Shown piece after piece: positions 4,459 through 53,929 of a stretch of DNA of 64,000 nt; position 1 is the first letter of the stretch; the number at the start of each line of letters is the position of its first letter. Where the stretch lies: NCBI GenBank assembly GCA_029856045.1, contig JAHQWG010000047.1, positions 192,001 through 256,000 of the forward strand, given 5' to 3'. Both the position numbers and the translations under genes were made by a program. The notes beneath the pieces were generated by a model. It worked only from the letters and a program-made list of their open reading frames with translations, made no database searches and had not been told where the DNA came from. The stretch comes from Promethearchaeia archaeon (GTDB lineage Archaea > Asgardarchaeota > Lokiarchaeia > Sigyniarchaeales > SOKP01).

Positions 4459-4593
4459 CTGGCAAAGTATGAATGTACGGCTTGTGGCTATATTTATGAC
4501 GAAGAAGTAGAAGGGACAAAATGGGAAGACCTCCCTGATGATTGGACATGCCCAGTATGCGGAGTAGGAAAAGATATGTTTGAAAAACTTTAA
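4459..4593 (+). CDS. Short rubredoxin (44 aa), CTG start
   Basis: (M)[43 protein letters not shown]; SD-like GAGGGG at 4445-4450; no in-frame ATG/GTG/TTG between the upstream stop (4408-4410) and the first CxxC. Confidence 0.93.
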
Positions 4594-4783
4594 AATTAAA
4601 ATTATTCCAAATTTTTTTTATTTTCTAAATTTTTTATTATTTTTCCTTTTAGTAATCTCACATGTCAATTGTATTATTTATAATTAAAAAAAAATAAATT
4701 TATAATCACTTTTTGAGTCTAATTAAATGTTATTCAAAGAAATTCAAAAAATCAATTAAATAAGAAAAAAAGGTGATAAAAAA

Positions 4784-5989
4784 ATGATTTATACTGAATT
4801 AATGAAGGATATTTATTACACAGGTTATGTAGATTGGGAGGTAAGAAATTTTCACGGATATTCTACACACAGGGGGTCATCATATAATGCTTATTTGGTA
4901 AAAGGAGAAAAAAATGTTTTGATAGATACGGTTAAACGTCCTTTTTTTAATTATTTCTTGGAGAATATAAAGAGCATCATTAATCCGGAAAAAATTGATT
5001 ATCTTATCATGAATCATATTGAAATGGACCATTCTGGCTCATTTCCATTAATCATTAAATATCTTCCAAACGCTCAAATTATAGCTTCTAAAAAGGGTGT
5101 TGAAATTTTAAGAGATCATTTTCATAAAGAAGTTGATGATGAAGTATTCAATAATATTCGAGCTGTGAAAGAAGGAGATACTTTAGATATTGGTAACGGT
5201 AAAAAATTTACATTTGTTCCAATCCCAATGATCCATTGGCCTGATTCAATGGTATCATTTATGACAGACGAAAATGGTAAAAACATTTTATTTTCAAATG
5301 ATGCTTTTGGACAACATTTCGCCACTTCCTCACGTTGGGATGATGAGAATGATTTTGACGTAATAATGGAAGAAGCGGTTAAATATTATGCAAATATTTT
5401 ACTTCATTTATCGAAACTGATCTCAAATGTTTTACCCAAAGTAGGTTCTTTGCCAATAGAAATTATTTGCCCTTCGCATGGAGTGTGTTGGAGGAAACAT
5501 GTAGGAGATATAGTTGAAAGGTATAAAAAGTGGTCAGCAGGAGACATTGATAATAAAACAGCAATAATTATATATGATTCAATGTGGGGAAGCACCGAAA
5601 TTATCGCAAAAGCCCTATACAAGGAATTGCAATATAGAGGGATAAAAGTGAAACGATATAAATTAACTAATGCAGACTATTCTGACGTAATAACAGAAGC
5701 TATGCTTTCAAAAGCAATTATTGTAGGAAGTCCAACTTTAAATAATGGAATGTATCCAACAGTGGCAGAATATGTCTGTTATCAGAAAGGTTTAAAGCCA
5801 ATGAATAAAATAGGACTAGCCTTTGGTTCGTATGGATGGGGTGGTGGAGCTGTGAAAGAAATTATTAAAGAGTTAGAAGCTTCTAAAATTGAAGTTTTAG
5901 ACGAACATATAGAAATTAAATTTGTTCCAAAGCCAGAAGATCTTAATTTCAAAAAGATTATCGATAAACTAATTGAGAAAATGGTATAA
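4784..5989 (+). CDS. fprA: Flavodiiron protein (O2/NO reductase, class A)
   Basis: HIEMDHSG, HWPD, SNDAFGQH, PSHG and flavodoxin-domain YDSMWGST, FGSYGWGG; SD AGGTGA at 4771-4776. Confidence 0.95.
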   Translation: MIYTELMKDIYYTGYVDWEVRNFHGYSTHRGSSYNAYLVKGEKNVLIDTVKRPFFNYFLENIKSIINPEKIDYLIMNHIEMDHSGSFPLIIKYLPNAQIIASKKGVEILRDHFHKEVDDEVFNNIRAVKEGDTLDIGNGKKFTFVPIPMIHWPDSMVSFMTDENGKNILFSNDAFGQHFATSSRWDDENDFDVIMEEAVKYYANILLHLSKLISNVLPKVGSLPIEIICPSHGVCWRKHVGDIVERYKKWSAGDIDNKTAIIIYDSMWGSTEIIAKALYKELQYRGIKVKRYKLTNADYSDVITEAMLSKAIIVGSPTLNNGMYPTVAEYVCYQKGLKPMNKIGLAFGSYGWGGGAVKEIIKELEASKIEVLDEHIEIKFVPKPEDLNFKKIIDKLIEKMV

Positions 5990-6001
5990 AGGTTTTAAGA
6001 T

Positions 6002-7402
6002 ATGGATTTCAATTTAACAGACACTCAAAAAGAATTGCAAAAAAAAGCACAGGAATTTGCAATTAAGGAAATCTTGCCAGTAGCAGCTAGTTACGATGAA
6101 CATGGGAAATTTCCAATTGAAATTATTGAGAAAGCCTATAAGGCAGGTTTAGTGAATTTAGCAATTCCAAAAAAATATGGGGGACCTGGTTATGGTCTCT
6201 TAGAATCTGTAGTAGTTGTTGAGGAAATTGCTGCGGCTTGTCCCGGATTCGCAACATCCATATTTGCAAATAATTTAGGAGCAGAGCCAATAATTTTAGG
6301 AGGTAATGAAGAACAGAAAGATAGAATATTAGGAGAATTAGTAAAAAAATTTACTTTAATTTCTTTTGCTACCTCTGAACCTGGAATGGGTTCTGATGTT
6401 GCTGGAATTAATTGTCAAGCTCAAAAAGATGGAGAAGATTATATTTTAAATGGTACAAAGTATTGGATTACCAATGCAGGTTATGCAAAATATATTTCTC
6501 TATTTGCGACAACGGATCCAGCAAAAAAACATAAAGGAATATGTGCTTTTATTTTACCAACTAATTTAGTAGGAGTTAAAACAGGAAAACCAATTCCTAA
6601 ATTGGGGCATAGAGCATCGAATACCACTTCTGTGGTTTTAAAAAATGTGAGAATTCCAAAAGAAAATATATTGGCTCATCCAGGGAGAGGTTTTATTTTA
6701 GCAATGCAAACATTTGCTCACACTCGTCCAGCCATAGGAGCTTTTGCTACAGGTTTAGCAAGATCCGCTATGGAATATGTGATTGATTATGCAAAAAAAA
6801 GAGAGACTTTCGGAAGACCAATAGCAAATTATCAAGCTATTCAGTTCAAAATTGCAGAAATGTATAAAAATATTGAAGCTAGTCGATTATTAACCCATAA
6901 ATCAGCATGGGAGACAGATCAAGGGTTAGATAATACATTAAGTGCAGCATGTGCAAAAGCATTTGCCTCAGATGTTGCTATGCAAGTAGCTACTGAAGCT
7001 ATTCAAATAATGGGAGGTTACGGTTATATGAAAACATACCCATTAGAAAAGTTATTCAGAGATGCAAAACTATTTCAAATTTACGAAGGCACCTCAGAAA
7101 TCCAGAGAATAATTATTTCAAGATTTGTGATGAAACAATATAAACATGGAATGCCCAATTTATATGAACTCCCAAGAATTGAGGTAGAAAGAGAAGAAGA
7201 AGTTGAAATTCCGCCAATTTCATTAAAGACTAGTGAGGAACTGGGAGGAAAATACAGATGTACAGTGTGTGGATATATTTATGATCCTGTAAAAGGTGAT
7301 CCAGATAGTGGAATCTCTCCAGAAACTCCATTTGAAGAAATTCCAGATGATTGGCATTGTCCAGTATGCGGAGTTTCAAAGGATAAGTTTATAAAATTAT
7401 GA
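6002..7402 (+). CDS. Acyl-CoA dehydrogenase with C-terminal rubredoxin domain
   Basis: [37 protein letters not shown], then [12 protein letters not shown]...WHCPVCGV. Confidence 0.93.
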
Positions 7403-7426
7403 TTATTTTCTTGTAGGTGCGATAAA

Positions 7427-9085
7427 ATTACGGAAAAGAATGTATTCACATTTATAGTTGGGGGTAAAGCTGGTCAAGGTGTTAAAAAAGCAGGTTCAGT
7501 TGCTTCTCAACTTTTTATAAATAAGAGTCGTTTTGTATTTCAAATAGACGATTACATGAGTTTAATAAAAGGAGGACATAATTTCTCGATTGTTAGTACT
7601 TCTACTAGATGGATTAGTAGTCATTATATGAAAGCTGATCTAATTGTTAATTTTGATAAAAGAAGCTATGATAATCATATAGACCACCTTTCTGAAGGTG
7701 GTTTAATGGTCTATAATTCTGATATTAAAGGAAATATGGGTGGTATAGGTATTTCTTTAACAAGCGAAGCAAAAAGATTTCCTAATCCTAATTTAATGCT
7801 TGGAGTTGGTGCTATTGCTATATTAGGGGCGACCATTGGCGTTAATAAAACAGAGTTAAATGCATTAATAAAGAATGAATATTCTAAAGGTGTTAAAGAG
7901 AATATTTCTTATGCCAATATTATTTATGATATTGTTTATCCTATAATTGGAGGGAAATTCCAATTAGAAGGTGGATCTAAAAAAAGACCGAATATCTCGG
8001 GAAATCAAGCAATAGCATTAGGAGCAATAGCAGGTGGATTAGATTGTTATTACGCTTATCCTATGACACCAGCCACATCCATCCTACATTATCTTGCTGC
8101 AATAGCAGATGATTTTGGACTTGCAGTTATACATCCCGAAAATGAAATAGCAGTTATAAATATGGCTATAGGATCAACCTTTACTGGAGCGAGGTCAATG
8201 GTTGGTTCTAGCGGCGGAGGTTTTTCTTTGATGGCTGAGGGAATTTCATTAGCTGGTATAATCGAATCACCTGTATTAATTGTATTATCCATGAGACCTG
8301 GACCAGCTACGGGCGTTCCAACTTATACAGAACAAGGAGATTTAAATTTTGCTTTAAATGTGGGTCATGGGGAATTTTTACGCATCGTTGCTTCTCCAGG
8401 AACTATAGAGGAGGCATTTTTTCTTACAGCTCAAATGTTGGATTTAGTATGGAAGTTTCAAACTCCTGGAATATTACTCACAGAAAAACATTTATCAGAG
8501 AGTAGTATGACAGTCGATATAAATTTAAATGACACTATTTGGGCTGAACCACTGCTTTATAAAGATGGAGAATATAAAAGATATTTAGATACGAAGGATG
8601 GAATATCCCCCTTATTATTTCCACCATCAAAGGAAATACTCAAATGGAATAGTTATGAACATGATGAGTTTGGATTTACAACCGAAGATCCTCAATGGAT
8701 TAAAAGGATGCATGATAAACGAAATAAAAAGTTTAAATCATTAAAAAATTACCTTATGAAAAAAAAAACAATAAATATTTTTGGGGATAAGGGGCCAATA
8801 ATAATTACATATGGTTCAACGGTGATGAGCGTATTAGAAGCATTAAAGTATGGTAATATTGAGGCTAGAGTTGTACAACCAATTTTTTTGAGTCCGTTGC
8901 CTATTTGGGAGCTTGAAAAATTTAAAGACCAAGAAGTTATTGTTATAGAGCAAAGTGCTATAGGTCAATTTGCTAATTTACTTAAAGAAAATATGAATAT
9001 TCAATTAAAAAAAGTAATAAAGCAATACGATGGAAGACCTTTCGACCCAATAAAATTATCTAAAAAAATTAAGGATGTGGTATAA
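7427..9085 (+). CDS. 2-oxoacid:ferredoxin oxidoreductase alpha subunit (gamma-alpha fused), probable ATT start
   Basis: Frame extends 43 codons upstream of the track start and includes FIVGGKAGQGVKKAG; YPMTPAT, SSGGGFSL, RPGPATG; SD-like AGGTG at 7415-7419. Confidence 0.88.
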   Translation: MTEKNVFTFIVGGKAGQGVKKAGSVASQLFINKSRFVFQIDDYMSLIKGGHNFSIVSTSTRWISSHYMKADLIVNFDKRSYDNHIDHLSEGGLMVYNSDIKGNMGGIGISLTSEAKRFPNPNLMLGVGAIAILGATIGVNKTELNALIKNEYSKGVKENISYANIIYDIVYPIIGGKFQLEGGSKKRPNISGNQAIALGAIAGGLDCYYAYPMTPATSILHYLAAIADDFGLAVIHPENEIAVINMAIGSTFTGARSMVGSSGGGFSLMAEGISLAGIIESPVLIVLSMRPGPATGVPTYTEQGDLNFALNVGHGEFLRIVASPGTIEEAFFLTAQMLDLVWKFQTPGILLTEKHLSESSMTVDINLNDTIWAEPLLYKDGEYKRYLDTKDGISPLLFPPSKEILKWNSYEHDEFGFTTEDPQWIKRMHDKRNKKFKSLKNYLMKKKTINIFGDKGPIIITYGSTVMSVLEALKYGNIEARVVQPIFLSPLPIWELEKFKDQEVIVIEQSAIGQFANLLKENMNIQLKKVIKQYDGRPFDPIKLSKKIKDVV

Positions 9086-9929
9086 AATAGTGAAATTAGG
9101 AACTAATATCGAAAATACCTGGTGCCTAGGTTGCGGTAATTTTGGAATTTTAAATGCTTTCAAGAAAGCAATTGTTGAGCTTGAAGAAAAAGGAATTTCA
9201 CAAAATAATATTTTAATTGCTTCTGGTATTGGTTGTAGCGCAAAAATCTTTGATTATCTTAATCTCAGCGGTATTTATTCATTACATGGAAGAGATTTAG
9301 CTACAATAGAGGGAATTAAATTTGCCAATCCAAATTTAAAAACAATCACATTCTCAGGAGATGGAAATGCAATGGGCGAAGGTTTAACGCATTTACTATT
9401 TGCTGCAAAACGGAACGCAGATGTAACAATAATTATGCACAACAACGGTGTTTACGCCTTAACAACGGGACAATATACGCCGATTACTGAAAGAGGTTGG
9501 AAAGGACCTTCCACTCCCAAGGGAAGCGTTGAAGAACCTTTTAATGCTATATCTTTAGTTTTGGAAGCAGGAGCTACCTTCGTTGCTAGGTCCTATACAG
9601 CGAAAATACAGCACCTTACAGATATGATGGTTCAAGCGATAGAACATAAGGGTTTTTCTTTCTTAGAAGTTCTACAACCTTGTGTTAGCTATAATAATAC
9701 TTATAAATTATACAACGAAATTGTTGAAGAACTTGATGATATTCCTAAAAGCATTGAAGAAGCAAAATTATATGCAAAGAATAAAGATAAATTATTTATT
9801 GGAATATTTTATAGAACTGAGAAACCAACTTTTTGTGAGTTATTATATGGTGATCATAACCCAGTAGAGAAAAGGCAGTATAGAGAAGAGAGAATAAATA
9901 AAATAAAAAAAATATTAAATATTAAGTAG
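9075..9929 (+). CDS. 2-oxoacid:ferredoxin oxidoreductase beta subunit (TPP-binding)
   Basis: WCLGCGNFG, SGIGCS, LHGR, SGDG, NNGVYALTTGQ, LQPCVSYN. Confidence 0.92.
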   Translation: MWYKIVKLGTNIENTWCLGCGNFGILNAFKKAIVELEEKGISQNNILIASGIGCSAKIFDYLNLSGIYSLHGRDLATIEGIKFANPNLKTITFSGDGNAMGEGLTHLLFAAKRNADVTIIMHNNGVYALTTGQYTPITERGWKGPSTPKGSVEEPFNAISLVLEAGATFVARSYTAKIQHLTDMMVQAIEHKGFSFLEVLQPCVSYNNTYKLYNEIVEELDDIPKSIEEAKLYAKNKDKLFIGIFYRTEKPTFCELLYGDHNPVEKRQYREERINKIKKILNIK

Positions 9930-9974
9930 AATCGAAATTTTATTTTTTATTAAATAAATTTAGAGGTTCCTAAA

Positions 9975-10544
9975 ATGGATGTAAAAGAGGCAATAAATAA
10001 AAGAAGAGCGTATAGATCTCTTGATCCTATTAAAATTTCTGATGAATTAATACAAGATCTTGCAGAATCTGCACAATTGGCTCCATCTTGTATGAATAAA
10101 CAACCGTGGAGATTTATTTTTATTCATGATAAGAAAGTTTTAGAAAAATTATTTACTACATTAACATCGGGAAATAAATGGGTTGAAAAAGTATCTATGA
10201 TAATTGGTGTATTTAGCAATCCTAAAAATGATTGTATAATCGGAGAAAGATTTTATTATCTTTTTGATACTGGCATGGCTACAGCTTTTATTATATTAAG
10301 AGCTACTGAACTTGGGTTGATTGCGCATCCAATTGCTGGTTTTAATGAAGAGAAGGTCAAGAAAATTCTAGATCTTCCTGAAGAAATGAGATTAATTACA
10401 CTTGTGAATATTGGGAAACATTCTAAAGAAATAAATCCTAATCTTTCTGAAAGTATGAAGTTGGGAGAAAAACAACGCCCTCCGAGAAAATCAATTGATG
10501 ATTTTGTACATATTAATAAATATGACCCAAGTAAGGAAAAATAG
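9975..10544 (+). CDS. Nitroreductase family protein
   Basis: RRAYR, LAPSCMNKQPWRF, ATELGL. Confidence 0.9.
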   Translation: MDVKEAINKRRAYRSLDPIKISDELIQDLAESAQLAPSCMNKQPWRFIFIHDKKVLEKLFTTLTSGNKWVEKVSMIIGVFSNPKNDCIIGERFYYLFDTGMATAFIILRATELGLIAHPIAGFNEEKVKKILDLPEEMRLITLVNIGKHSKEINPNLSESMKLGEKQRPPRKSIDDFVHINKYDPSKEK

Positions 10545-10562
10545 TTTTTAAGAGATTAAAAA

Positions 10563-12701
10563 ATGGAAAAAAGATTGTTGGATAAAAAAAAATTATCTCA
10601 AAATGATGAAATTACACATAATAAACTAATAAATGAGAAAAGTCCTTATTTACTTCAACATGCTGAAAATCCTGTTAATTGGTATCCATGGGGAAACGAA
10701 GCATTTGAAAAGGCACGAAAAGAAAATAAGCCAATATTCTTATCAATTGGATATTCTACTTGCCATTGGTGTCATGTTATGGCACATGAGTCTTTTGAAG
10801 ATACAGCAGTGGCAGAATTAATGAACGAAATCTTTGTTTCAATTAAAGTTGACAGAGAAGAGCGACCTGATATTGATAAGATCTATATGACTATATGTCA
10901 AATGATGACAGGTCAAGGGGGATGGCCACTTACGTTATTTTTAACTCCTGATAAAAAACCATTTTTTGCTGGAACCTATTTTCCTAAAGAAAGGAGATTT
11001 GGTCGAATAGGTTTGATAGAACTCATATTAAAAATAAAAGAGCTTTGGAAAATACAAAAAAACGATGTGTTAAGATCTGCAGATCAAATTACTTTTTCTT
11101 TACAAAATTTAGATTTTAAATCGCCCGGAGATAAACTTAACGAAAAAACCATTAAAAAAGCTTATAATCAATTATTGAGTCAATATGATAATAAAAATGG
11201 AGGTTTCAACAACGCTCCCAAATTTCCTACTCCACATAATCTTCTCTTTCTTTTAAGATTTTGGAAGCGTACTGGGAATAAAGAAGCTTTAGAGATGGTT
11301 GAAAATACCCTTCAAAAAATGAGGCTTGGTGGTATTTATGATCATATAGGATTTGGATTTCATCGATATTCTACAGATCCAGTTTGGCTTGTTCCCCATT
11401 TTGAAAAGATGCTCTACGATCAAGCTTTATTGGCAATTGCTTATACAGAAGCTTACCAAGCAACTAAAAAAAATATATACGCAAATACAGCTAAAGAAAT
11501 TTTTACTTATGTCTTACGTGATATGACTTCACCTGATGGGGGATTTTATTCAGCAGAGGATGCTGATAGTGAGGGTAAAGAAGGAAAGTTTTATGTATGG
11601 ACTATTGAAGAATTCCAACAAATACTTGAAGAGGAAGAAGAAGATTTAGCAAGAAAAATATTTAATTTAAAAAATCAAGGAAATTATTTAGAAGAAACAA
11701 CTAAAAAAAAGACAAGTCATAATATATTGCATCTTAAAGATTCATTGACCAACCTTTCTAAAGAATTAAACATTTCTGAAAAGGATTTAACATTTAGGAT
11801 AGAAAAAATTCGCGAAAAATTATTCAAAATTAGAGATGAACGAGTTCATCCCCATAAAGATGATAAGATATTAGCTGATTGGAACGGATTAATGATTGCT
11901 GCATTTGCTAAAGGAGCTCAAATTTTTGGCGATTCTATTTATTTAAATGTTGCAAAAAAAGCGGCAAATTTTATACTTTCAAATATGCGGAAACCAAACA
12001 ATAGATTATTACATCGATATAGAGAAGGAGATGCTGAAATTGATGCTTACCTAAATGATTATATCTTCTTAATATGGGGATTTATTGAATTATATGAAAC
12101 TAGTTTAGAAGTCACTTTTCTTAAGAATGCTCTGGAATTAAATAAAGAAGTAATAGATCATTTTTGGGATGATTCAGTAGGTGGTTTCTTTTTTACTGCC
12201 AATGATGGTGAGACACTTTTAACTCGTCAGAAAGAGATCTACGATGGAGCAATCCCATCAGGAAATTCTGTAGCTATGTTAAATTTATTAAGATTGAGTT
12301 ATTTAACTGGAGATCACGAGTTAGAAGAAAAAGCGGATATTTTAAGTAGAGTTTTTGCTGAACGAGTTAATAATTCACCGATTGCGCATACTCAATTAAT
12401 GGTTGCAGTTGATTTTAGCGTTGGTCCAACCTTTACAATAGTAATTGTTGGTGATGCTGAAGAAATTAATACGCAAGAAATGTTAGCATATATTCATAAT
12501 CAATTTCTCCCAAATATATCATTAATTCAGAGAAATATAAAACAGGTTCCTCCAGAAATCGATGTATTTATAAATTATATCCATAATTACAATAAAATAG
12601 ATAATAAAACTACTGCTTATATATGCACAAATAAAACCTGTAAACCTCCAATAACAGATGTCAATAAATTGTTAAAACTTATTAATCCAAGATGGAATTA
12701 A
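10563..12701 (+). CDS. YyaL/SPATA20-type thioredoxin-domain plus alpha/alpha-barrel protein
   Basis: [55 protein letters not shown]. Confidence 0.92.
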
Positions 12702-13873: not shown

Positions 13874-13992
13874 AAGAAAACTTTATTATAATCGAAATAA
13901 TTGATGGTTTATTTACAATAATAGACTTAAGTTTCTCAAGAGAATTAAATGGATTTTTAGTAATTCATAAAAAAAATGAAAAAAAAATAATT

Positions 13993-14787: not shown

Positions 14788-14788
14788 A

Positions 14789-16405: not shown

Positions 16406-16418
16406 TTCTTTCCCTCCA

Positions 16419-30528: not shown

Positions 30529-30542
30529 CGAGAGGGAATGCT

Positions 30543-30743
30543 ATTCCGAAGAAATGTAAATGGTATAATTGCTGCCCATTGAAATTTTTTTACGAGCAGG
30601 ACAATTTAGAAGAAAAATGGGTCAGAGATTATTGTTGGATAGGCAATAAAAATTGCATAAGATATCAAAAAGAAGAAGCTGGAATACCTCATCCAGATAA
30701 TATGATGCCAGATGGTAGTATAAGAGAGGATTTAAAATATTAA
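30543..30743 (+). CDS. Small Cys-rich conserved protein (66 aa), probable ATT start
   Basis: (M)PKKCKWYNCCPLKFFYEQDNLEEKWVRDYCWIGNKNCIRYQKEEAGIPHPDNMMPDGSIREDLKY; pattern CKWYxxCP...YC...CxRY...HPDxMxPDG recognised from memory as a small conserved family; SD-like GAGGGA at 30532-30537. Confidence 0.78.
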   Translation: MPKKCKWYNCCPLKFFYEQDNLEEKWVRDYCWIGNKNCIRYQKEEAGIPHPDNMMPDGSIREDLKY

Positions 30744-42215: not shown

Positions 42216-42644
42216 TTATTTTTTTTTTAAAAGAGAATCGATAATTATTTTTTTATGATCAAATGCTAGTTCCATTGATTCAATATTTTTAATAGGAACT
42301 AATTCCAAATCCGTTGCATCAGTTTTTGCTATAGGGTTTTCGTTCATTGTTAATGGTTCACATAAATATGAAATAGTAACTGTGTGACCTCTTGGATCTC
42401 GTTTGGGATCAGAATAAACTCCTGTTAATTTTATAATTCTAATATGGATATTTGTCTCTTCAAAAGCTTCCCTTTTACAAGCTTCTTCTGCAGTTTCACC
42501 TACTTCCACAAAACCACCGGGTAAAGCGAATTGCCCTTGAAATGGGGGATTTTTCCTTTTAATAAGTACAATTTTCTCATCCGGTATTTTTATCACAGCA
42601 TCAACCGTTAAAAGTGGTGTAATGGGGATGGGCATATTTTTCAC
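42216..42644 (-). CDS. NUDIX hydrolase
   Basis: LPGGFVEVGETAEEACKREAFEET Nudix box; RDPRGH, LAFDH. Confidence 0.92.
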   Translation of the reverse strand: MKNMPIPITPLLTVDAVIKIPDEKIVLIKRKNPPFQGQFALPGGFVEVGETAEEACKREAFEETNIHIRIIKLTGVYSDPKRDPRGHTVTISYLCEPLTMNENPIAKTDATDLELVPIKNIESMELAFDHKKIIIDSLLKKK

Positions 42645-42664
42645 ATTATTTTAAAAATTTGTAT

Positions 42665-43753: not shown

Positions 43754-43852
43754 TTTACTTTAAAACAATTTATTTGAAAGTACTTGTTTTTATCTTAAGG
43801 AATTAATAGCATATTAAATATATTTATTTTATTTAAAATAATACGATATTTA

Positions 43853-44755: not shown

Positions 44756-44859
44756 GTTCATTTTCAGAAAAAAGTTTGTCTAGAGTATGTTAAATTCACC
44801 TTAAAAAAACATTCTATATTATTTTATGGGGATCTGCATTATACAGAAAATAGATTTTT

Positions 44860-45849
44860 TTAATATTTTTTTGCAGGTACTAGCTTTAATACTTGGAATA
44901 TTTGATTTTCAGAAGGATTTGTGTCAAAATTTTTTATTTTTTTTTGTAATTTTTCACTTAGTATGAAATCCAATAAGAAATTTGGTTTTTCCTCACTTAG
45001 AATGATAAGTGAACCACTAGAGCCTCCTAATTTTGCTCCGATAACATTATTTATATTACAAAAGTCCAATATTTCTTGATCAATTTTTCTTTGCAATATC
45101 ACATTTTCAGTTGGATTTCCATAACGACCGTAAGTTTGTGTTAATTTCTGATTCTCATTCATCAGTTTTCCAATTAATTTAAGGTCTTTATTAATAATTG
45201 CTTCTTTACCTTTTATAGCACAATTTCGAATTTTATTCACAATTTTTATTAGACTAGAATTAGTTGGATAAGCGAGAAATGGGAATCTATGAATATCTCC
45301 ACTGCTAATATTCTTACTCCTTACACCAATATAGAATGGTATATCTTTAATATCAAGGTCTTCAATAATATAATTTCTATAATCATCACTTGAAAAGTCC
45401 ATATATTTAATCCCTCCAAATGTATCTACAAAACAATCTTGTGGTCCAGCAGTATTCCCCATAATCTCATGCTCAACAAGTCGAGTATAATGTGCGATGG
45501 TTCTTAAATTCAATTTTAAAGAAAATAATTTATTGAGACCTTTAAATAGATTAACAATTATCGCAGTAGAACCTGAAAGACCCCCTTGTACGGGAATATT
45601 TGTCTTGATTTTAAAACTGAAATTTTCTAAGTTAAAACCTTTTTGGCTTAATAAAATTAAAGAACTACTTACAATATTTCTAAAATTCTCATTTTGCTCA
45701 TTATTAATTAAAAATAAATTTTTTTCCTCTTTACTCACCTCTCCTTTTACGAAAAAATCTTTAATAGTTGAGGAAATTACAATACCATTATAAATATCTG
45801 ATGGATTTCCCAAAATTCCTATTCTTGCGTTAGTTTTAATTCTTACCAT
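44860..45849 (-). CDS. GHMP-family sugar kinase, glucuronokinase-like
   Basis: ARIGILGNPSD, IPVQGGLSGSTA, AGPQD..V..FGG...MDF, GAKLGGSSG. Confidence 0.8.
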   Translation of the reverse strand: MVRIKTNARIGILGNPSDIYNGIVISSTIKDFFVKGEVSKEEKNLFLINNEQNENFRNIVSSSLILLSQKGFNLENFSFKIKTNIPVQGGLSGSTAIIVNLFKGLNKLFSLKLNLRTIAHYTRLVEHEIMGNTAGPQDCFVDTFGGIKYMDFSSDDYRNYIIEDLDIKDIPFYIGVRSKNISSGDIHRFPFLAYPTNSSLIKIVNKIRNCAIKGKEAIINKDLKLIGKLMNENQKLTQTYGRYGNPTENVILQRKIDQEILDFCNINNVIGAKLGGSSGSLIILSEEKPNFLLDFILSEKLQKKIKNFDTNPSENQIFQVLKLVPAKKY

Positions 45850-45850
45850 T

Positions 45851-46762
45851 TTAATTCTGGAATTCCTTTGTTCTTTTTATTTCAATATTGAATCCATTTA
45901 GAATTTGAGATAAATGTGATTTATCTGGAGCGTTTAATCCCTTCCAATCGTATATAAAATAATCAATTTTTGATTCTAGTGTTTTGTCAATGATTTGTTT
46001 AATCATTTCCTCATTAAGCTCCTGAATAAAATATTTAGGGCAAATATGAGCTATTGCAATATTTGTATTAATTATTAATTTTTTAAATTTAGGTGAATAA
46101 TGGGTTCCACCAAATCCCAGACAGATCATTGGGTTTTCTCTTTTCACTATCCAATATTTTTCAATTGTTTTAATAATTGCATCAGCCACTACTTTTCCCG
46201 CTCTTTGATCATTCCATTCCGCCTTTATACTACCTAACTCCATAAAAACTAATGGAATGGAATGATTTGTTGGTCCATGATGGTTAACTTCCATATCAAT
46301 TGAAAATTTTCCCTCTTCTAATTCTCCACTTGATTCTAGTAGGGAGAGAAATCCAGCTTTCAATAAAATAGCGCTTGAATATGCAATTTCTTTTGAATTG
46401 CCACCAAATAGTGCTTCTTCGCCCCAATTTCCAGTTGTATGAATTAATAAAGCCGGTTGAGCTGATTTTGAAGCATGTCTGCTAGCAAAAATTAAAAAAT
46501 CAGGCTTAAAATCTAATTCTTCTAATTTAAGATCGTCGAGAAAAATTAAACTCTTATCAGTAAGTCCTAAATAAACTCGATTATTTAATGAAATATCCTC
46601 TTTGATGAAATCTTTATCAACTTTATTCAATAGAAAGAGATTATGCCCATACCATTTATTATTTAACTCTTTAAATGAATAATTTTTTGAATTTATTAAT
46701 TTATCACGGATATTTATTGATGCGATATCCTCCGAACTCGATATAATCAAAAAATTTAGCAT
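45851..46762 (-). CDS. dtdA: Archaeal D-aminoacyl-tRNA deacylase (DTD2)
   Basis: FASRHAS, HTTGN, EVNHHGPT, FMELGS, GFGGTHY, DWKG. Confidence 0.92.
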   Translation of the reverse strand: MLNFLIISSSEDIASINIRDKLINSKNYSFKELNNKWYGHNLFLLNKVDKDFIKEDISLNNRVYLGLTDKSLIFLDDLKLEELDFKPDFLIFASRHASKSAQPALLIHTTGNWGEEALFGGNSKEIAYSSAILLKAGFLSLLESSGELEEGKFSIDMEVNHHGPTNHSIPLVFMELGSIKAEWNDQRAGKVVADAIIKTIEKYWIVKRENPMICLGFGGTHYSPKFKKLIINTNIAIAHICPKYFIQELNEEMIKQIIDKTLESKIDYFIYDWKGLNAPDKSHLSQILNGFNIEIKRTKEFQN

Positions 46763-46893
46763 TATATTATGTAATAATACACGCGTTTTAATTAAGATAT
46801 AATTGAACTTACAATTTTTCGAATGGATTTTGTCATACTAAAAAAATTTGTGATTATGTCAAAATAATGGATCTCTATAAATTTAAAATTATT

Positions 46894-47835
46894 TTAAATT
46901 CTTCTTGACATTGGCCAAAAAATTTGAAAAATTCTCGCTTTCGCGGATTTTAAATAAAAATATTTTGTTCTACCTGCTACCCACTTGATTATACATTTAT
47001 CTATACCCATCTGCTTTATATCCCATAAGCACCATTTTAACAACAACCCTCCGATACCTTTTCCCCGTAAATTTCTTAATACACCTGTAGGACCAAAACT
47101 CCCTGGATGTTGAGCACTATGGGTTGCAAATCCAACAATTTTGTAATTATTGATATCTCGCACAATAAACGTCGTTGAAGGATCATTCTCAAACGAAATA
47201 AGAGTCTCTTCTGGCCATGTACCTTTACCAAAATGTTTTTTAATAAAAGCTACAGTTTCTTCTTTATCTTTTTGTAATGTTCGTGATATTTTATATCCAT
47301 TTATTTCTTTCAGAGGTTCTTCTTTTGGAAAATTGTCTTTATCAACTCCTAAATCGGTTCGAAATCGTTCAAAGAAATTATTTTTAAAACCTAATTTCCT
47401 CAAAAAAAAGTATGCTTCAGTATGTCTTGGATCTAACCCGGGCAACCAATAACGAGGATTTGAGTCCATGATAGAAACTTTCATTCTCCAAACTGCATTT
47501 TTTTGTTGTTTCGCTCTTTTAAAAAGCTTATTCATCATTTCAGTTCCTATTCCTCTATATCTGTAATTCTTTTCTACAACGAACATCTTTATAACTAATT
47601 TATTGCGAGATTTTGGTAGTATACATCTTCTAAACACTGCAAAAAAAAATGCTATTGGTGTATTATTCTCATCAACTGCAACTAAACTCAATTCGGGATT
47701 ATAATCTTCGTCCATTAGCGTTGCACGCTTAAAAGTATCAAATGAAAAGGAATAAAATAAAACATTTTCTTCACACATTGTATAAACAGAACTTAAATTG
47801 CTTTCAGTGAGAGGATCGATGTTTAATTCTTCCAA
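46894..47835 (-). CDS. Tandem GNAT acetyltransferase
   Basis: YRYRGIGT and FGPTGV...RGKGIGGLLL acetyl-CoA-binding motifs. Confidence 0.85.
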   Translation of the reverse strand: MEELNIDPLTESNLSSVYTMCEENVLFYSFSFDTFKRATLMDEDYNPELSLVAVDENNTPIAFFFAVFRRCILPKSRNKLVIKMFVVEKNYRYRGIGTEMMNKLFKRAKQQKNAVWRMKVSIMDSNPRYWLPGLDPRHTEAYFFLRKLGFKNNFFERFRTDLGVDKDNFPKEEPLKEINGYKISRTLQKDKEETVAFIKKHFGKGTWPEETLISFENDPSTTFIVRDINNYKIVGFATHSAQHPGSFGPTGVLRNLRGKGIGGLLLKWCLWDIKQMGIDKCIIKWVAGRTKYFYLKSAKARIFQIFWPMSRRI

Positions 47836-47922
47836 ATTCTTCCAACAATTAGATTTTTAATTCTATATTGTTTAATTTTCTTTAATATTAATAAATTTAA
47901 TTAAATACTGTTAATCCAAATA

Positions 47923-49194
47923 ATGTTAGATTTTCAAGTTGCAATAATTCCTCAGGAAAATTATGATAAATCAGAGATTGCTTTAAAAATTGGAACATAT
48001 TTTGACCAAGCAGGTTATAATTTTAAAGAAAAAACCGTTTTAATTAAACCTTCATTTGTATTTGCTATAGGAGATGCGGAAAGGACATTATCAACAAATA
48101 CTAATGTCGCCCTAATTTATGGAGTTGCGCAGGCGCTATCAATTAGGGGAGCCTCAAAAATTTTAATTGCTGAAGATAGAACAATCGGTCCCGCAAGATA
48201 CGCATTTTATATGATCAATATAAAAAAGACTGTAAATGGCATAAAAAATGTTAAAATGTGTTATTTAGATGAAAAAAAGAAAGTTAAAGTTGTAGTAAAT
48301 AATCCTTTCATTCCAAATCATATAATTAAATACCCTAAATTACTAATTGATGATACAGTAGATTTTTTTATATCATTACCTAAATTAAAAGCAAATATCT
48401 TTGCTGATATTACTCTAAGTATAAAAAATAATCTGGGTTTAATTTCTAAAAAAGAACGACTAAAATTTCATGATGATAGACTTCATATGCACCTTGCAGA
48501 TATTGCACTAATTCGCCAACCAGATTTAATTATTGCAGATGCTATTGTTTCTGGGGAAGGTCAAGGACCATATGAAACTACAAATGTATATACAAACATG
48601 TTGGTTGTTGGAACAAACTGTCTTGCAGTTGATGTAGTATGTTGTTATCTTATGGATCAAAATCCAAGTGAGATTGAACATCTAAAAATTTTACATGAGA
48701 GAGGCATAGGACCTTTAAATATTAATGATATAGATATTAAAAATAAGAATTATCTTGATACTAAAAAAAAGAAATTTAAAATGCCTGATAGAAATCTAGA
48801 AATGTCTCCTTCGATTAAAGTGTATCTAGGAAAAAAATCATGCCAAGCTGGTTGCTTAGGAATGATTAGAGCATTTTTAGATGGATATAGTATAAAAAAA
48901 GGATGGGATTCACTAGGAGAATTAAACTTAATATTGGGAGAAAATATTGAAATTCCAAAAAATGAACTTGATAAACTGAATAAAAAAAATACAATCGTTT
49001 ATGGAGATTGTGCAAAAGAGTATAAGAAATATGGGATTTATTTTAAAGGATGCCCACCAGATTATGTAAAAGCATTATTAAAAATGTCACTTAAATCCTC
49101 TTTAGGCAAGTCTCCATGGTTTGAATATTTTTCACCTTGGAATTATGTTAAAGCCTGGATTGTCCATATACTACAAAAAATATTTAGATTTTAA
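47923..49194 (+). CDS. DUF362-family Fe-S protein
   Basis: VLIKP, ISLPKLK, TLSIKN, DAIVSGEGQGP, LAVD; C-terminal CQAGC...GDC...GCPP. Confidence 0.8.
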   Translation: MLDFQVAIIPQENYDKSEIALKIGTYFDQAGYNFKEKTVLIKPSFVFAIGDAERTLSTNTNVALIYGVAQALSIRGASKILIAEDRTIGPARYAFYMINIKKTVNGIKNVKMCYLDEKKKVKVVVNNPFIPNHIIKYPKLLIDDTVDFFISLPKLKANIFADITLSIKNNLGLISKKERLKFHDDRLHMHLADIALIRQPDLIIADAIVSGEGQGPYETTNVYTNMLVVGTNCLAVDVVCCYLMDQNPSEIEHLKILHERGIGPLNINDIDIKNKNYLDTKKKKFKMPDRNLEMSPSIKVYLGKKSCQAGCLGMIRAFLDGYSIKKGWDSLGELNLILGENIEIPKNELDKLNKKNTIVYGDCAKEYKKYGIYFKGCPPDYVKALLKMSLKSSLGKSPWFEYFSPWNYVKAWIVHILQKIFRF

Positions 49195-49218
49195 GCAATT
49201 TTAAAAAAATTTTAAAAT

Positions 49219-49359
49219 ATGAAGACCCTCACGGAAAAAACTCCTTCAAAGTGCAATTTGGTTTGACAAGGTTATTCAAAAGGTACATGTGAGGTAATTT
49301 TAAAAGATGGAACTACTCAACCTGCATGTAAATCGACATTGAAATATAAAAATGGGTAG
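49219..49359 (+). pseudogene. Possible decayed Fe-S protein fragment
   Basis: MKTLTEKTPSKCNLV*QGYSKGTCEVILKDGTTQPACKSTLKYKNG*; KCNL...PAC resembles DmsB/NrfC-type motifs; internal TGA at 49264-49266. Confidence 0.25.
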
Positions 49360-49489
49360 CATTATAGACTAATCAAATCGATGCATTTATCACGTCTTGA
49401 AGATTATTTTTCAATATGTACCGGAAGATCAGATGGTAGAAGTTATTTGTTAGATTAAAATAAAGGCGGACCTTATATGAAATATTTTA

Positions 49490-50383
49490 TTAATGGTTTC
49501 TGATAAAATCGCGAATTGTTCTATACCCGATTATTTTTATACCGTACTTCTTAACACACTTCTTAATACGTGGATCGGTAAATGCTTCATAATCTTGATT
49601 TCGCCAACTTGCTGAATCCGGTGTTATAGCTCTTAATTCTGGACTCATTTTTGCTGGATGAAATAAAAAGTGTGTCAAACCGGGTTTTATTTCTGCAAAA
49701 AGTTTACAATAATACTCAACTTTATCTGGTTGCTCCCCCCCTGTATCAATAATCATATGATCCATTAGAGGAACACCACTTGCCTCTAGCTTTGAGAACA
49801 TTTTTAGAAAAACATCAGCTTGATCTCCTCGTCCTATAGCGATTAATTCTTCTCTAGTTAATCTTGGTAAAAATGCAGGAACATTAAAGTCTCGAGCTAC
49901 CCTTAGGTATGACGGAATGAATTTGGGATTCAAAACAGTTCCCATATGTGAATCTATGTGCGTAACATCAATTCCATTGTCTAAAGCCATCTGAATTTGT
50001 AAACGCATTTCGATTTCAGCCGCCTTAACAGTTACATTGGCAATCGCCTCCTCCTCAGTACGCCAGAGACATTTTTCTGAATCCAATAATCCTGTCTTGG
50101 AATCAACACTGCTCAATGCACGCCAGCGATACAGATCATATTCACACGTGAGAGTTAAATGAATACCAAGATCATATTTTGGGTTATTCCTATAATTTGA
50201 TGCTACTTCAAAAAACCAAGGGGCAGGGACAAGAATAGAGCCACAGCTAGCTATCCCAAAATCTAAACATTCAAAAGATGCTACATTTGAACTATGAGAA
50301 AAACCAATATCATCAACATGGAATATAACAACTTTATCAGATGCTTTAAAACCAAGTTTTTCAATAAGTGTTAAATCCTTCAT
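49490..50383 (-). CDS. ChbG/YdjC-family carbohydrate deacetylase
   Basis: IFHVDDIG, GIHLTL, THIDSHMG, FHP. Confidence 0.88.
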   Translation of the reverse strand: MKDLTLIEKLGFKASDKVVIFHVDDIGFSHSSNVASFECLDFGIASCGSILVPAPWFFEVASNYRNNPKYDLGIHLTLTCEYDLYRWRALSSVDSKTGLLDSEKCLWRTEEEAIANVTVKAAEIEMRLQIQMALDNGIDVTHIDSHMGTVLNPKFIPSYLRVARDFNVPAFLPRLTREELIAIGRGDQADVFLKMFSKLEASGVPLMDHMIIDTGGEQPDKVEYYCKLFAEIKPGLTHFLFHPAKMSPELRAITPDSASWRNQDYEAFTDPRIKKCVKKYGIKIIGYRTIRDFIRNH

Positions 50384-50448
50384 ATTTTAATCTCGTGTTT
50401 CATATTTAATAATTACTTAAAAACAGTAGGTTCATCTGTAATTTGAAA

Positions 50449-51108
50449 TTATAACTTAATATCCACAGTTATTTTGGCCAATTCTTTTATTCTTCTTACT
50501 CCTTCAACTGCATCATCAGCAAAATCATCAGCACCCAATTTTTTAGCGAGTTCCATATTTAAAGGCGCTCCTCCAACGATAATTTTAACCTTATCTCTTA
50601 AACCAGCTTTTTCAAGTTCTTCATGAACATTTTTAATTTCCTCAACTGTCATCGTCAATAAAGAACTAAGACCAATAATTTTTGCTTTAGTTTCTTTTAC
50701 CGTCTCAACTATTTTCTCTGCTGGAATATCCATACCAACATCTATTACTTCGAAACCAGCACTTAGGAGTAGAGATGATAGAATATTTTTTCCTATATCA
50801 TGATTGTCTCCTCGAACAGTAGCCACAATGATTTTGACTTTTTCTTTCCCTCCACCTTCGGCTTCTAATTTTGGTTTAAGGATTTTAAACGCTTCTTTCA
50901 TTGTCTCACCCGCAAGAACTAATTCAGTAAGATAATATTCCTTTTTTTCATATAATTCTCCAACTTTATCCATACCTTTGGTTAATGCATCTAAAATACT
51001 CATTGCGGTTTTACCCTCACTCAATGATTCTTTTACAGCGTCTGCAATATCGTCAACTTCAAGCTCAATAATTAATTCGGTTAATTTTTCAAATTCCATT
51101 TTATTCAA
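50449..51108 (-). CDS. Methyltransferase-cognate corrinoid protein (MtaC/MttC-like)
   Basis: B12 cap domain plus GDNHDIGKN, GLSSLLT, VGGAP. Confidence 0.92.
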   Translation of the reverse strand: MNKMEFEKLTELIIELEVDDIADAVKESLSEGKTAMSILDALTKGMDKVGELYEKKEYYLTELVLAGETMKEAFKILKPKLEAEGGGKEKVKIIVATVRGDNHDIGKNILSSLLLSAGFEVIDVGMDIPAEKIVETVKETKAKIIGLSSLLTMTVEEIKNVHEELEKAGLRDKVKIIVGGAPLNMELAKKLGADDFADDAVEGVRRIKELAKITVDIKL

Positions 51109-51275
51109 TACTCAATTCATTATTTTCTACAAAAATCTAATATTTATTTATAATTTTAAATTCTAAAAAAGTTTTTCTGAAGTAGTATTTAGAAAAGTTG
51201 AGAGAATAATTTGGCTTGAAAATTTTAAAAAATATTTAATAAGTTTTTAATTCTGTTTTTCGTTTCTTATGAATT

Positions 51276-52022
51276 ATGGAAAACAATAATTTTGTGAATT
51301 CTAAAGAATCCATTGAAACCAAAAAAAAACCATTAATTGTTTTAAAAGACGTGTTAAAAGAGTATGATATAGGAGATTGGATTATTAGGGCAGTGGATCA
51401 TGTCAATTTATCGATTTTTGAAACGGAATTTGTTGCAATTGTGGGACCTTCAGGTGCAGGAAAAACAAGCTTATTGAACTTAATTGCAGGATTGGATTCA
51501 GTAAATGAGGGAGAAATCTATAATTCGGGAATAAGAATTACCGATATGTCTGAAGAATCCTTAGCTACATTCAGAATTTTTAATATTGGATTCGTCTTTC
51601 AGAATTATAATCTTATATCAACTCTAACTGCTGAAGAGAATGTAATTTTTCCAATGATGTTGGCTGGAATGACCTTAGATGAGCGAAGGGACAGAGGCTT
51701 AAGATTATTGGGGGAAATGGGGTTGGAAGAGAGAAGAGAACATTTACCATTCCAACTTAGTGCAGGGGAACAACAAAGAGTTGCAATTGCCCGGGCATTG
51801 GGTAATGATCCCCCAATAATCATTGCAGATGAACCAACAGCTAATTTAGATATGGAGACTGCGGAGTTTATTGCAAAATTATTTAAAAAACTAAAAGAAA
51901 ACAAAAAAACTTTAATAATTGCAACTCATGACAAGGTTCTAATTAAACAAGCAGATAGAATAATTACTTATAAAGACTCGCAAATAATAAAGCAAGATAT
52001 TATACATGATATTTTACAATAA
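51276..52022 (+). CDS. ABC transporter ATP-binding protein (LolD/MacB type)
   Basis: GPSGAGKT, LSAGEQQRVAIARAL, ADEPTANLD. Confidence 0.93.
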   Translation: MENNNFVNSKESIETKKKPLIVLKDVLKEYDIGDWIIRAVDHVNLSIFETEFVAIVGPSGAGKTSLLNLIAGLDSVNEGEIYNSGIRITDMSEESLATFRIFNIGFVFQNYNLISTLTAEENVIFPMMLAGMTLDERRDRGLRLLGEMGLEERREHLPFQLSAGEQQRVAIARALGNDPPIIIADEPTANLDMETAEFIAKLFKKLKENKKTLIIATHDKVLIKQADRIITYKDSQIIKQDIIHDILQ

Positions 52023-52036
52023 TAGAGGGATATTAA

Positions 52037-53929
52037 ATTTCACTAGATTTCGCAATAAAGGACCTAATAAGAAAAAAAGAAACGACTATTCCAAATTTAG
52101 TTATAGTCATTTTAGTCTCAGCATTAGTAGTTTATTTCATATATTTTTGGAATTCTTTAGGAGTTAATATATTCTATGAAAATAAGTATTTATTCACAGC
52201 AAGCATCCGTGAAATTTACTACGAATTTAATGTCTTCATTTTAATTTTGGTGTTAATAATAGCCAGCACAGTTATAGTCATTATAATCTCGTCTTTATTT
52301 GCGTACAAAAAGAGAGATATTGCGATAATGAAATCTTTAGGAGCTTTGCGCGAGAAATTTTATAGCTTTTATATGAAAGAAGCATTAATTATTTATCTCG
52401 TTGGCTTTTTAATTGGATTAATTATAGGGTTATTATCTTATGGATTAACTAGTTTAATTTTATTATTTCTTAATTTTTCAGTAAATATTTATATAGATTT
52501 TTTTTGGATTCCTATTTTTTTCTTCTTAACTCTATTCGCCGTTTATGTCATAAGCGGTTATGTATTAAGAAAAATCACTCAACAAAAGATTCAGTGGATA
52601 TTTTCGAAAGATATACAACATGATTTTGATGCACAAAAGACATTAACATTAATCCCTAGATGGCTTTCTCGATTTGGATTTAATCTAAAAATTGCCATTA
52701 CCAATTTAATTAGAAGAAAAGGTGAATTTAAGAGATTTTTAATTTTATTTGGTACAATAATGACTCTTATCTTTACACTTACGATTGGGGTTTTTGTGTT
52801 GACTTCATCTGCAGAAAATTGGATATCTAGATCACAAGGAAATAACTTAATTGTAATTGGTCATAGAGATGTAGTATATAATTATTCTTTAATGTATCAA
52901 AAATTTTCTGATTTAAATATTGATACCAATGAACCAAAATTTAACTTTACCAAATCAAATTACTTATTTGATTCAAGTATTTTATCCTCATTCGAATCAA
53001 TTGAAGGTATTCAAAAAATAGATAAAAGATTAATTACTTTTTCAACAATAAAAGAAATTAACAGTTCAATAATTATTGAAGGACAGTATATCTCTGTAGG
53101 AGAAGATAGATACGCCACAATTCCTTTAATTGGAGTTGATCCAAATGAGATGTGTCAAGATTTTGAAATTGAAGGGGTATTTTTTACAGATGAAGATGGC
53201 TATGATAATATTACAATTGGCGATTCTCTTGCAAGATTCACATTTTCTGTTCCATTATATCAGAAATTAAGAGTAGGAAATGGCACTTCATATCACATTA
53301 AAGGAATTTTAATCGATAGTTTTAATAATGGATACACAGCATATTTTGATTTAGAAACGTTAAATGAAGAAATGGGCTTACCCATAGATAATATTAATAT
53401 CATTCTGATTCAAGCTAATTCAATAGAAATTGATGCTTTGGAAAATCAACTGGAAACAATAATTAAAAATGAATTAGGTCAAGAATTTATTGCAATGAAT
53501 ATGAATAATGTTTTTAATCAGAATTTATTCAAGTTAAAAACATTGAATATTATCCCTATAATTCTTATTATCCTTTTCTCAGCAATTTCATACCTTTCAT
53601 TATATAATTATCAGAAAGTAGCTTTGCATGAAAAGGTTAAGGATTTTATAATTATGAAAGCAATTGGTGCAAAAAGCAAATCACTAAAGCGAATTTTATT
53701 CATAGAGAACTTCTTTATTATAATTATATCATCCGCTTATTCTATAGGAGTATCAATGTTAATAAACATTTTATTTTTATTTGAAAGAGTTACTTTGCCA
53801 CCATTTTATGAACCGTTATTAATATTTATTGGATATCTTTCAATCTTCTTAATATTAAATTTCCTCAGTATAATACCTTTGAGTAAAAAGATAAAGCAAT
53901 TTTCAATTAAGGATTTTGAAGTTTATTAA
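52037..53929 (+). CDS. FtsX/MacB-type ABC permease, probable ATT start
   Basis: Frame opens right after TAA at 52034-52036 (ISLDFAIKDLIRKKETTIPNLVIVILV...), mirroring the internal repeat LKIAITNLIRRK; KRDIAIMKSLGA and KDFIIMKAIGA motifs; SD-like GAGGGA at 52025-52030. Confidence 0.85.
   Translation: MSLDFAIKDLIRKKETTIPNLVIVILVSALVVYFIYFWNSLGVNIFYENKYLFTASIREIYYEFNVFILILVLIIASTVIVIIISSLFAYKKRDIAIMKSLGALREKFYSFYMKEALIIYLVGFLIGLIIGLLSYGLTSLILLFLNFSVNIYIDFFWIPIFFFLTLFAVYVISGYVLRKITQQKIQWIFSKDIQHDFDAQKTLTLIPRWLSRFGFNLKIAITNLIRRKGEFKRFLILFGTIMTLIFTLTIGVFVLTSSAENWISRSQGNNLIVIGHRDVVYNYSLMYQKFSDLNIDTNEPKFNFTKSNYLFDSSILSSFESIEGIQKIDKRLITFSTIKEINSSIIIEGQYISVGEDRYATIPLIGVDPNEMCQDFEIEGVFFTDEDGYDNITIGDSLARFTFSVPLYQKLRVGNGTSYHIKGILIDSFNNGYTAYFDLETLNEEMGLPIDNINIILIQANSIEIDALENQLETIIKNELGQEFIAMNMNNVFNQNLFKLKTLNIIPIILIILFSAISYLSLYNYQKVALHEKVKDFIIMKAIGAKSKSLKRILFIENFFIIIISSAYSIGVSMLINILFLFERVTLPPFYEPLLIFIGYLSIFLILNFLSIIPLSKKIKQFSIKDFEVY

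Follow-up and report, generated by a model that had tools for sequence, protein, structure and literature searches.

Among the closest described counterparts of the genes discussed here are those of bacteria. Escherichia coli infC and pcnB start at AUU/AUA (Butler et al. 1987 and Binns & Masters 2002, as cited in PMC13009471 and PMC4705826), and Staphylococcus aureus possesses four such starts (infC, cvfC1, ccpN, and citZ), all of which lie behind extended Shine–Dalgarno (SD) motifs and give 10%–30% of the output of AUG (PMC13009471). In eukaryotes, eIF1 autoregulates via its own poor initiation context (Ivanov et al. 2010, cited in PMC6237735 and PMC4705826). For archaea, ribosome profiling in Haloferax volcanii placed approximately 30% of putative alternative initiation sites at near-cognate codons (PMC7261190), and 'a rare ATT start codon' has been proposed for an Asgard tubulin (PMC13394414); no systematic description of near-cognate starts in Asgard archaea was found in the literature searched. 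The present analysis concerns five genes in a 64,000-nucleotide stretch of a Promethearchaeia genome (hereafter, the window), encoding a rubredoxin, a 2-oxoacid:ferredoxin oxidoreductase (OFOR), a small Cys-rich protein, an ABC permease, and a TPR protein, together with the wider family of genes to which their unusual start codons point.

The window (contig JAHQWG010000047.1 of assembly GCA_029856045.1; G000:C51:192001-256000 in the numbering used here) belongs to a genome of 3.34 Mb in 55 contigs from an uncultured Asgard archaeon, with 29.4% GC and an archaeal 16S rRNA. Throughout, ATG, GTG, and TTG are the canonical starts, ATH denotes ATT, ATA, or ATC (AUH in mRNA), and SD5 and SD4 denote matches of at least 5 and at least 4 nt to GGAGGTGA, the accepted register in genome-wide counts being 4–9 nt upstream of the codon. 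Each N terminus was searched for in 40 relatives drawn from the genus, family, and order, and the DNA was read at the aligned position.

With a probability of roughly 0.85, these are intact genes whose translation would start at a near-cognate codon: AUU, AUA, AUC, and, in one gene, CUG. Canonical starts are absent, the codon is homologous to the initiator of orthologues and conserved among relatives, the extensions are under purifying selection, and codons of this kind are enriched genome-wide behind SD motifs at the spacing seen for ATG.

Near-cognate codons at five conserved genes

A sequence-only reading of the window had proposed that four genes possess a conserved N terminus that no canonical codon can reach, each with an SD 5–8 nt before a CTG or ATT, and all of its coordinates proved correct. 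Alignment of the N termini, which it had suggested as a check, places the near-cognate codon at the homologous methionine in all five genes, with that of OFOR lying one codon before. All positions in the window given below are on the plus strand.

The FtsX/MacB-type ABC permease (Pfam FtsX; 630 amino acids from the ATT start) occupies 52037..53929. An in-frame TAA (52034–52036) closes the frame immediately ahead of ATT 52037, and the SD-like motif GAGGGA (52025..52030) lies 6 nt before the ATT, with GAGGG kept in genus relatives. The first canonical codon, TTG 52247, is 70 codons downstream, and a start there drops the first transmembrane helix. ATT 52037 is aligned exactly with the ATG of the MSLDFA(L/I)KD of orthologues; the codon is ATT in five genomes of the genus, ATT (G017 and G024) or ATA (G005) in a second genus, and ATG elsewhere. 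Within the extension, codon differences are mostly synonymous (13 synonymous versus 2 non-synonymous against relative G004, and 11 versus 3 against another), and identity in the 60 nt upstream of the start falls to 34–35 positions in these comparisons, the range given for relatives overall being 34–43.

The OFOR gene is a gamma–alpha fusion of 552 amino acids from its ATT start (7427..9085; Pfam POR and POR_N). Its SD, AGGTG (7415..7419), lies 7 nt before ATT 7427, is scored as a 5-nt match at register 6, and is kept in G001 and G002; ATT and AGGTG together are retained in three genus genomes. Read from 7403, Pfam POR begins at residue 23 (equivalent to residue 15 from the ATT), with POR_N at 207–429. 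A start at the first canonical codon, ATG 7556, loses 43 residues, including the beginning of the POR domain. In most of the family, the codon that follows the position of ATT 7427 is an ATG, and where these orthologues have their ATG, G009 and G008 carry an independent ATA, 6 nt behind GGTGA; G020, from the same genus as G009, has ATG.

The rubredoxin gene (4459..4593; 44 amino acids; Pfam Rubredoxin, 1.9e-15) carries the CTG. The sole in-frame canonical codon is an ATG 39 codons downstream, past all four Cys residues, and the CTG aligns with the ATG, TTG, or GTG of MAK(W/Y)EC orthologues. The SD-like motif GAGGGG (4445..4450) lies 8 nt before CTG 4459 and is the same in the three closest genus relatives. 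Four genus genomes all retain the CTG, but the codon ahead of it varies, being ATT in the window genome and ACT in the other three, which identifies the CTG as the start. Two other candidates, ATT 4456 and ATA 4453, were ruled out, with all three closest relatives having ACT at the former site and one having AAA at the latter. In comparison with G003, codon differences comprise 20 synonymous versus 6 non-synonymous. Separately, the gene immediately preceding OFOR (6002–7402) encodes a 466-amino-acid protein that terminates in a rubredoxin-like module (..DDWHCPVCG..) with 67% identity over the module to the 44-residue rubredoxin; two rubredoxin modules therefore flank the redox gene cluster.

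For the small Cys-rich protein (30543..30743; 66 amino acids with a CKWY-x-CCP motif), orthologues have ATG or TTG at the position of ATT 30543, before x-K-x-CKWY-x-CCP; four genomes of the genus share the ATT, and G003 has ATC instead. An SD-like GAGGGA (30532..30537), retained by genus relatives, precedes the ATT by 5 nt. Initiation at TTG 30579, the first canonical codon of the frame, would remove the conserved CKWY..CCP Cys cluster. The Pfam scan returned no match for this protein (CKWY-x-CCPIK ... C-x-RY), which is present in 31 of the 41 genomes searched (window genome included), often in at least two copies. An out-of-frame ATG at 30538 opens a dead-end frame of 14 codons (30538–30582); it sits 5 nt ahead of ATT 30543, too near GAGGGA, and is conserved in genus relatives. 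This ATG might compete with the ATT for initiation or modulate its use.

The TPR gene, which the sequence-only reading had offered more cautiously as a fifth case, was borne out. Its frame opens at 56720 and contains in-frame ATT codons at 56744 and 56750, with the first canonical codon being GTG 56801. GGGA (56738–56741) lies 8 nt before ATT 56750, and by this spacing ATT 56750 fits better as the putative start than ATT 56744; the TPR/SNAP-like protein (Pfam TPR and SNAP matches) would then span 56750..58408. Throughout most of the family, orthologues display an ATT- or ATC-led I-L/I-E/Q-E N terminus soon after an in-frame stop, and up to 142 codons then pass without a canonical one. Upstream of this family-wide start, a G(G/A)G(T/A)TGA-like motif recurs, and its TGA or TAG is often the stop that closes the frame. 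The motif is similar to GGTTGTGA, found before the gene for the initiation factor aIF1, and might represent a bulged form of SD that is characteristic of 'locked' weak starts.

The expectation that annotation would truncate or hide such genes also held. The public OFOR record (NCBI, JGI, and Logan) is the exact 509-residue form from ATG 7556, a length shared by 10 of 11 cluster members (the other has 498 residues), and the public permease record has 533 residues rather than 630. No recorded protein is more than 89% identical to the window rubredoxin, yet three relatives encode one that is 95%–98% identical.

That public gene callers pick just these shortened forms might suggest that the genes are pseudogenes or yield truncated proteins from the next canonical codon, the upstream open frame being a relic; two genus relatives have, moreover, gained an ATG in the TPR gene 5 codons downstream of ATT 56750. 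Such truncation would, however, deprive rubredoxin of its first CxxC, OFOR of the start of its POR domain, the permease of its first transmembrane helix, and the small protein of its Cys cluster. The extensions are also under purifying selection, the odd codon is conserved where flanking non-coding DNA has diverged (for the permease, the 34–43/60 given above), and among 20 other candidates described below, nine would lose the start of a Pfam domain. The explanation is highly improbable. The odd codon is common to 3–5 genus genomes, three of which are separately deposited metagenome-assembled genomes (MAGs); this recurrence in independent MAGs, together with the synonymous-biased change in the extensions, excludes both sequencing errors and pseudogenes as accounts of the five genes.

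A genome-wide signal behind Shine–Dalgarno motifs

The 3′ tail of the 16S rRNA of the window genome is GGATCACCTCCT. Among the G-rich 4-mers of GGAGGTGA before 1,209 unambiguous ATG starts, the optimum is GTGA ending 6 nt upstream. SD4 occurs in register at 27% of unambiguous ATG starts versus 5% of random sites, and SD5 at 9.5% versus 1%. An energy-like SD score that included A:U and G:U pairs barely told true ATG starts from random sites and was dropped in favour of exact in-register matches to GGAGGTGA.

The genome-wide set comprised 2,943 non-overlapping long open reading frames (ORFs), with the leader of each defined as the interval that begins at the upstream stop and ends 8 or more codons short of the first canonical codon. 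Within leaders, SD5 precedes 55 of 1,680 in-frame ATH codons (ATT 22/835, ATA 27/656, and ATC 6/189), 9 of 2,359 out-of-frame ATH codons (ATT 3/1,137, ATA 4/852, and ATC 2/370), and 27 of 4,720 in-frame AT-rich control codons; the last comparison was needed because an in-frame TGA may itself belong to GGTGA. In-frame ATH codons with SD5 are hence enriched 6- to 9-fold (Fisher p = 8e-15 versus control codons and 2e-13 versus out-of-frame copies). The spacing of SD5 candidates peaks at 6 nt (29/59, with ACG rows included), the same as for ATG starts. A second test exploits the 43 long ORFs closed by the TGA of GGTGA: 6 nt downstream, the codon is canonical in 20 (ATG 11, TTG 8, and GTG 1) and ATH in 14 (ATA 8, ATT 5, and ATC 1), while at spacings of 0, 3, 9, 12, and 15 nt, ATH numbers only 1–6.

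These per-codon rates and the GGTGA+6 test are the only discriminating tests. Counting ORFs with SD4 and ATH anywhere in the leader was uninformative for long leaders, with controls scoring just as well (39 versus 41 of 80). ACG was rejected as a general start (4/44 versus 1/53; p = 0.13), one of its matches being the codon right after the OFOR ATT, and two further window candidates, ATC 46828 and ATA 43811, were dropped given that their ATG starts yield natural N termini.

The excess amounts to approximately 45 sites at SD5 (49 distinct genes) and 78 at SD4, and thus at least 40–80 further genes across the genome most likely begin at ATH. Since the criteria recover only two of the five validated window genes, the true total of near-cognate starts may reach 100–200, a rough extrapolation.

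Twenty SD5 candidates from other contigs with extensions of at least 20 codons (19 ATT, ATA, or ATC and one ACG) were scanned against Pfam from the proposed start. In nine, a domain begins within the extension, often at profile position 1–3, and would be cut by the first canonical start: PFL-like (4–650), AFOR_N (6–204), ETF (from 14), TFIIB zinc ribbon (17–58), adh_short (from 10), ABC_tran (from 22), a zinc ribbon (4–26), DUF7065 (8–50), and Hydant_A_N (from 53, in an extension of 60 codons). The other 11 have no N-terminal domain and are hence uninformative; none contradicts its proposed start.

Extent was gauged by sampling 400–800 kb per group. Across three other genera of the family (400 kb pooled), the SD5 counts are 12 of 261 for in-frame ATH codons, 4 of 673 for controls, and 1 of 344 for out-of-frame copies. 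Outside the family, G032 (800 kb) from a sister family gives a weak signal (10/378 versus 10/1,101; p = 0.016), and the sister-family genome G038 (400 kb, same processing) gives none (1/135 versus 3/408). On this limited sampling, the trait is therefore family-wide and fades beyond the family. In the same 800 kb of G032 (contig C1), in-frame CTG has SD5 in 3 of 17 cases versus 0 of 46 out of frame, which hints that CTG starts may be commoner there than in the window genome.

The same comparisons dispose of sequencing or assembly errors (ATG read as ATT or CTG) and of chance pairing of SD and ATT. The source is a MAG of 29% GC in 55 contigs, in which ATT and ATA are very common triplets, as either account would have it. 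Against this, identical codons occur in independent MAGs, neither control codons nor out-of-frame ATH show the SD association (p of about 1e-14), and the identically processed G038 shows no signal (the 1/135 versus 3/408 above). The chance that error or coincidence explains the pattern is negligible.

A different objection accepts the starts and denies the relaxation: fidelity would be normal, with the weak codons acting as gene-specific, selected attenuators in the manner of infC, pcnB, and S. aureus ccpN, and no lineage-wide change. The TPR gene and the aIF1 gene hold ATT or ATC across the family, as selected regulatory starts would, and the non-canonical starts of S. aureus likewise combine extended SDs with reduced output (PMC13009471). 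Most cases, however, alternate between ATG and ATH from one close relative to another (for OFOR, ATA in G009 versus ATG in G020; for the permease, ATT or ATA in two genera versus ATG elsewhere), the small Cys gene varies between ATT, ATC, ATG, and TTG, and such alternation resembles tolerance under AT mutation pressure. The number of genes also goes far beyond any bacterial case (at least 40–80 genes, and 14 ATH versus 20 canonical codons at GGTGA+6). Attenuation as the whole explanation is therefore unlikely.

Frequent TTG starts had also been taken as a sign of relaxed start selection. The genes named in that connection do exist and fit their models, with Pfam DnaJ, desulfoferrodoxin, beta-eliminating lyase, Fumble-type PanK, and CdhD all beginning near the N terminus when read from the TTG. 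The interpretation did not survive: TTG accounts for 21% of first-canonical starts and 24% of SD5-supported ones, which is ordinary alternative-start usage.

Initiator tRNA and the gene for aIF1

A pattern search located an initiator tRNA (G000:C27, minus strand) with a CAT anticodon, A1:U72, and a GGG:CCC anticodon stem. This tRNA carries an intron beside the anticodon loop. Arms with a GAT or TAT anticodon were sought in the window genome by the same means, and nothing resembling an initiator tRNA was returned. The program aragorn called 17–25 tRNAs, including one tRNA-SeC but no tRNA-Met, in a genome that otherwise looks complete; the remaining tRNAs were presumably missed because of introns.

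It is conceivable that AUH is served by special decoding—a second initiator tRNA starting with Ile, a modified C34 on the initiator tRNA, or RNA editing to AUG. All three AUH codons are used, and they share a third-position mismatch with CAU, as this would lead one to expect; the incomplete detection of intron-bearing tRNAs also leaves room for it. Nevertheless, the single tRNA of initiator type that was located carries a CAU anticodon together with the usual identity elements, the search for GAU and UAU arms was empty, the CUG of rubredoxin does not suit an AUH-specific tRNA, and near-cognate reading by the ordinary initiator tRNA is established in bacteria for infC and pcnB (as cited in PMC13009471 and PMC4705826). 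Special decoding is accordingly improbable.

The preferred reading, near-cognate initiation by the ordinary machinery, would operate as follows. The SD of the mRNA (core GGTGA within GGAGGTGA) would pair with the 16S 3′ tail and thereby place the codon approximately 6 nt downstream in the P site, where the initiator Met-tRNA (CAU) would be accepted despite one mismatch, which affects the third base of AUH codons and the first base of CUG. The product would thus begin with methionine, and output from these weak starts would probably be lower than from AUG. The tolerance would be a property of the whole family within this Loki-type Promethearchaeota lineage, with ATG and ATH interchanging between close relatives at most genes and the weak codon becoming fixed family-wide at a few, the TPR and aIF1 genes included.

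aIF1 itself is encoded by a single gene (SUI1) in the window genome (G000:C27:190766-191116). In nearly all genomes of the family, the gene displays AAAGGTTGTGA, then 9 nt, then ATT or ATC followed by K-D-D/E..ICPxC, with the TGA of AAAGGTTGTGA in frame. The first canonical codon lies at +41 to +87 or is absent in most family genomes, lies at +9 to +16 in three, and is preceded in one by a GTG just upstream of the start. In the genus of the window genome the start is ATA, with a GTG four codons upstream inside an SD-like GGTAGTG; G003 is without that GTG. Most sister-family genomes start the gene at GTG, TTG, or ATG. Given that aIF1 of the archaeon S. solfataricus discriminates against AUU in vitro (PMC4705826) and yet the gene here appears to start at AUH, the arrangement mirrors that of infC by analogy.

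A weak start on the gene for the very factor that rejects AUU would make aIF1 self-limiting, as is bacterial IF3, and would set a level of stringency that permits SD-led weak starts. Repression by aIF1 of translation from its own weak codon is thus plausible by extension from the in vitro AUU discrimination published for S. solfataricus, and a change in aIF1 or aIF2 fidelity in the lineage would also fit. A further proposal, which is tentative, is that start stringency is itself a regulated variable, with aIF1 setting, through its own AUU/AUA start, the feedback level for 100–200 SD-led AUH genes that would together form an 'aIF1-responsive regulon'. Redox enzymes, transporters, TFIIB, and PFL would then be among its members, and any shift in aIF1 activity would simultaneously adjust the output of several percent of the proteome.

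Several points count against near-cognate initiation as a general account. It rests on sequence comparison. In three window genes the SD match extends over only 4 nt (GAGG), and in the TPR gene (GGGA) it is weaker still. SD4 marks only about 27% of ordinary ATG starts, and reviews describe SDs as rare in Lokiarchaea and mention no non-canonical starts (PMC7531240 and PMC12993045); for both reasons, the dependence on SDs is statistical rather than established gene by gene. The gene count is rough, in keeping with the recovery of two in five validated genes, and with tRNA detection incomplete (25 tRNAs at most by aragorn), a second initiator tRNA is possible. Finally, CTG shows no genome-wide signal, with SD5 at 0 of 39 in-frame cases in the leaders of long ORFs in the window genome, and the rubredoxin CTG is therefore an isolated case, ATH being the enriched class. 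The lineage-level claim of SD-linked near-cognate starts accordingly stands for ATT, ATA, and ATC—by orthologues, enrichment, Pfam, and three further genera—and lacks genome-wide support for CTG.

Consequences and comparison with known systems

The immediate consequence is practical. Gene calls in this lineage are systematically wrong at the N terminus or missing, as seen for the five window genes and, elsewhere, for PFL, AFOR, ETF, TFIIB, and an SDR. Such errors skew predictions of domains, signal peptides, and structures as well as comparative work on Asgard 'eukaryotic signature' proteins, and the published tubulin case required the same manual repair (PMC13394414). More broadly, start-codon stringency differs among bacteria, archaea, and eukaryotes. 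A family among the archaea closest to eukaryotes in which AUU, AUA, and AUC would initiate several percent of genes, with a SUI1-type factor itself apparently encoded behind such a codon, offers a tangible case in which to study the evolution of aIF1/eIF1-based stringency and of its feedback.

The set of codons is that which NCBI genetic code table 11 lists as rare initiators (ATT, ATC, ATA, and CTG). Table 11 merely permits them, however; the gene callers run on these MAGs left such codons unapplied, and the public proteins are truncated or absent in consequence. The Asgard tubulin provides the nearest archaeal parallel, in that the deposited protein is too short and an upstream ATT behind a plausible ribosome-binding site restores the conserved N terminus. 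That remark concerned a single gene in another Asgard lineage, where the codon was called rare, whereas the starts described here recur throughout a genome and a family, with statistical support. The H. volcanii data likewise provide an experimental hint that archaeal ribosomes start at near-cognate codons, but the sites in question were put aside as potential false positives, and most are alternative or internal rather than the sole starts of conserved genes.

With bacterial starts of the infC and pcnB type, the resemblance is close: a near-cognate AUU or AUA follows a strong SD at the usual spacing and is retained by relatives, and, as with infC, the gene for a fidelity factor has a weak start. 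In contrast to the handful of such genes per bacterial genome, the window genome has at least 40–80. The factor also differs, aIF1 (SUI1 fold) being unrelated to IF3, and the host is an Asgard archaeon with eukaryote-type initiation factors, known here from sequence alone.

If the regulon proposal holds, the closest relatives of eukaryotes would possess a prokaryotic equivalent of the non-AUG initiation controlled by eIF1 and eIF5. As in the case of eIF1, the gene for a stringency factor of the SUI1 family has a weak initiation signal, and by analogy this would provide negative feedback on stringency. Where eIF1 relies on a poor Kozak context around an AUG, however, aIF1 of this family would use a non-AUG codon behind an SD-like motif.

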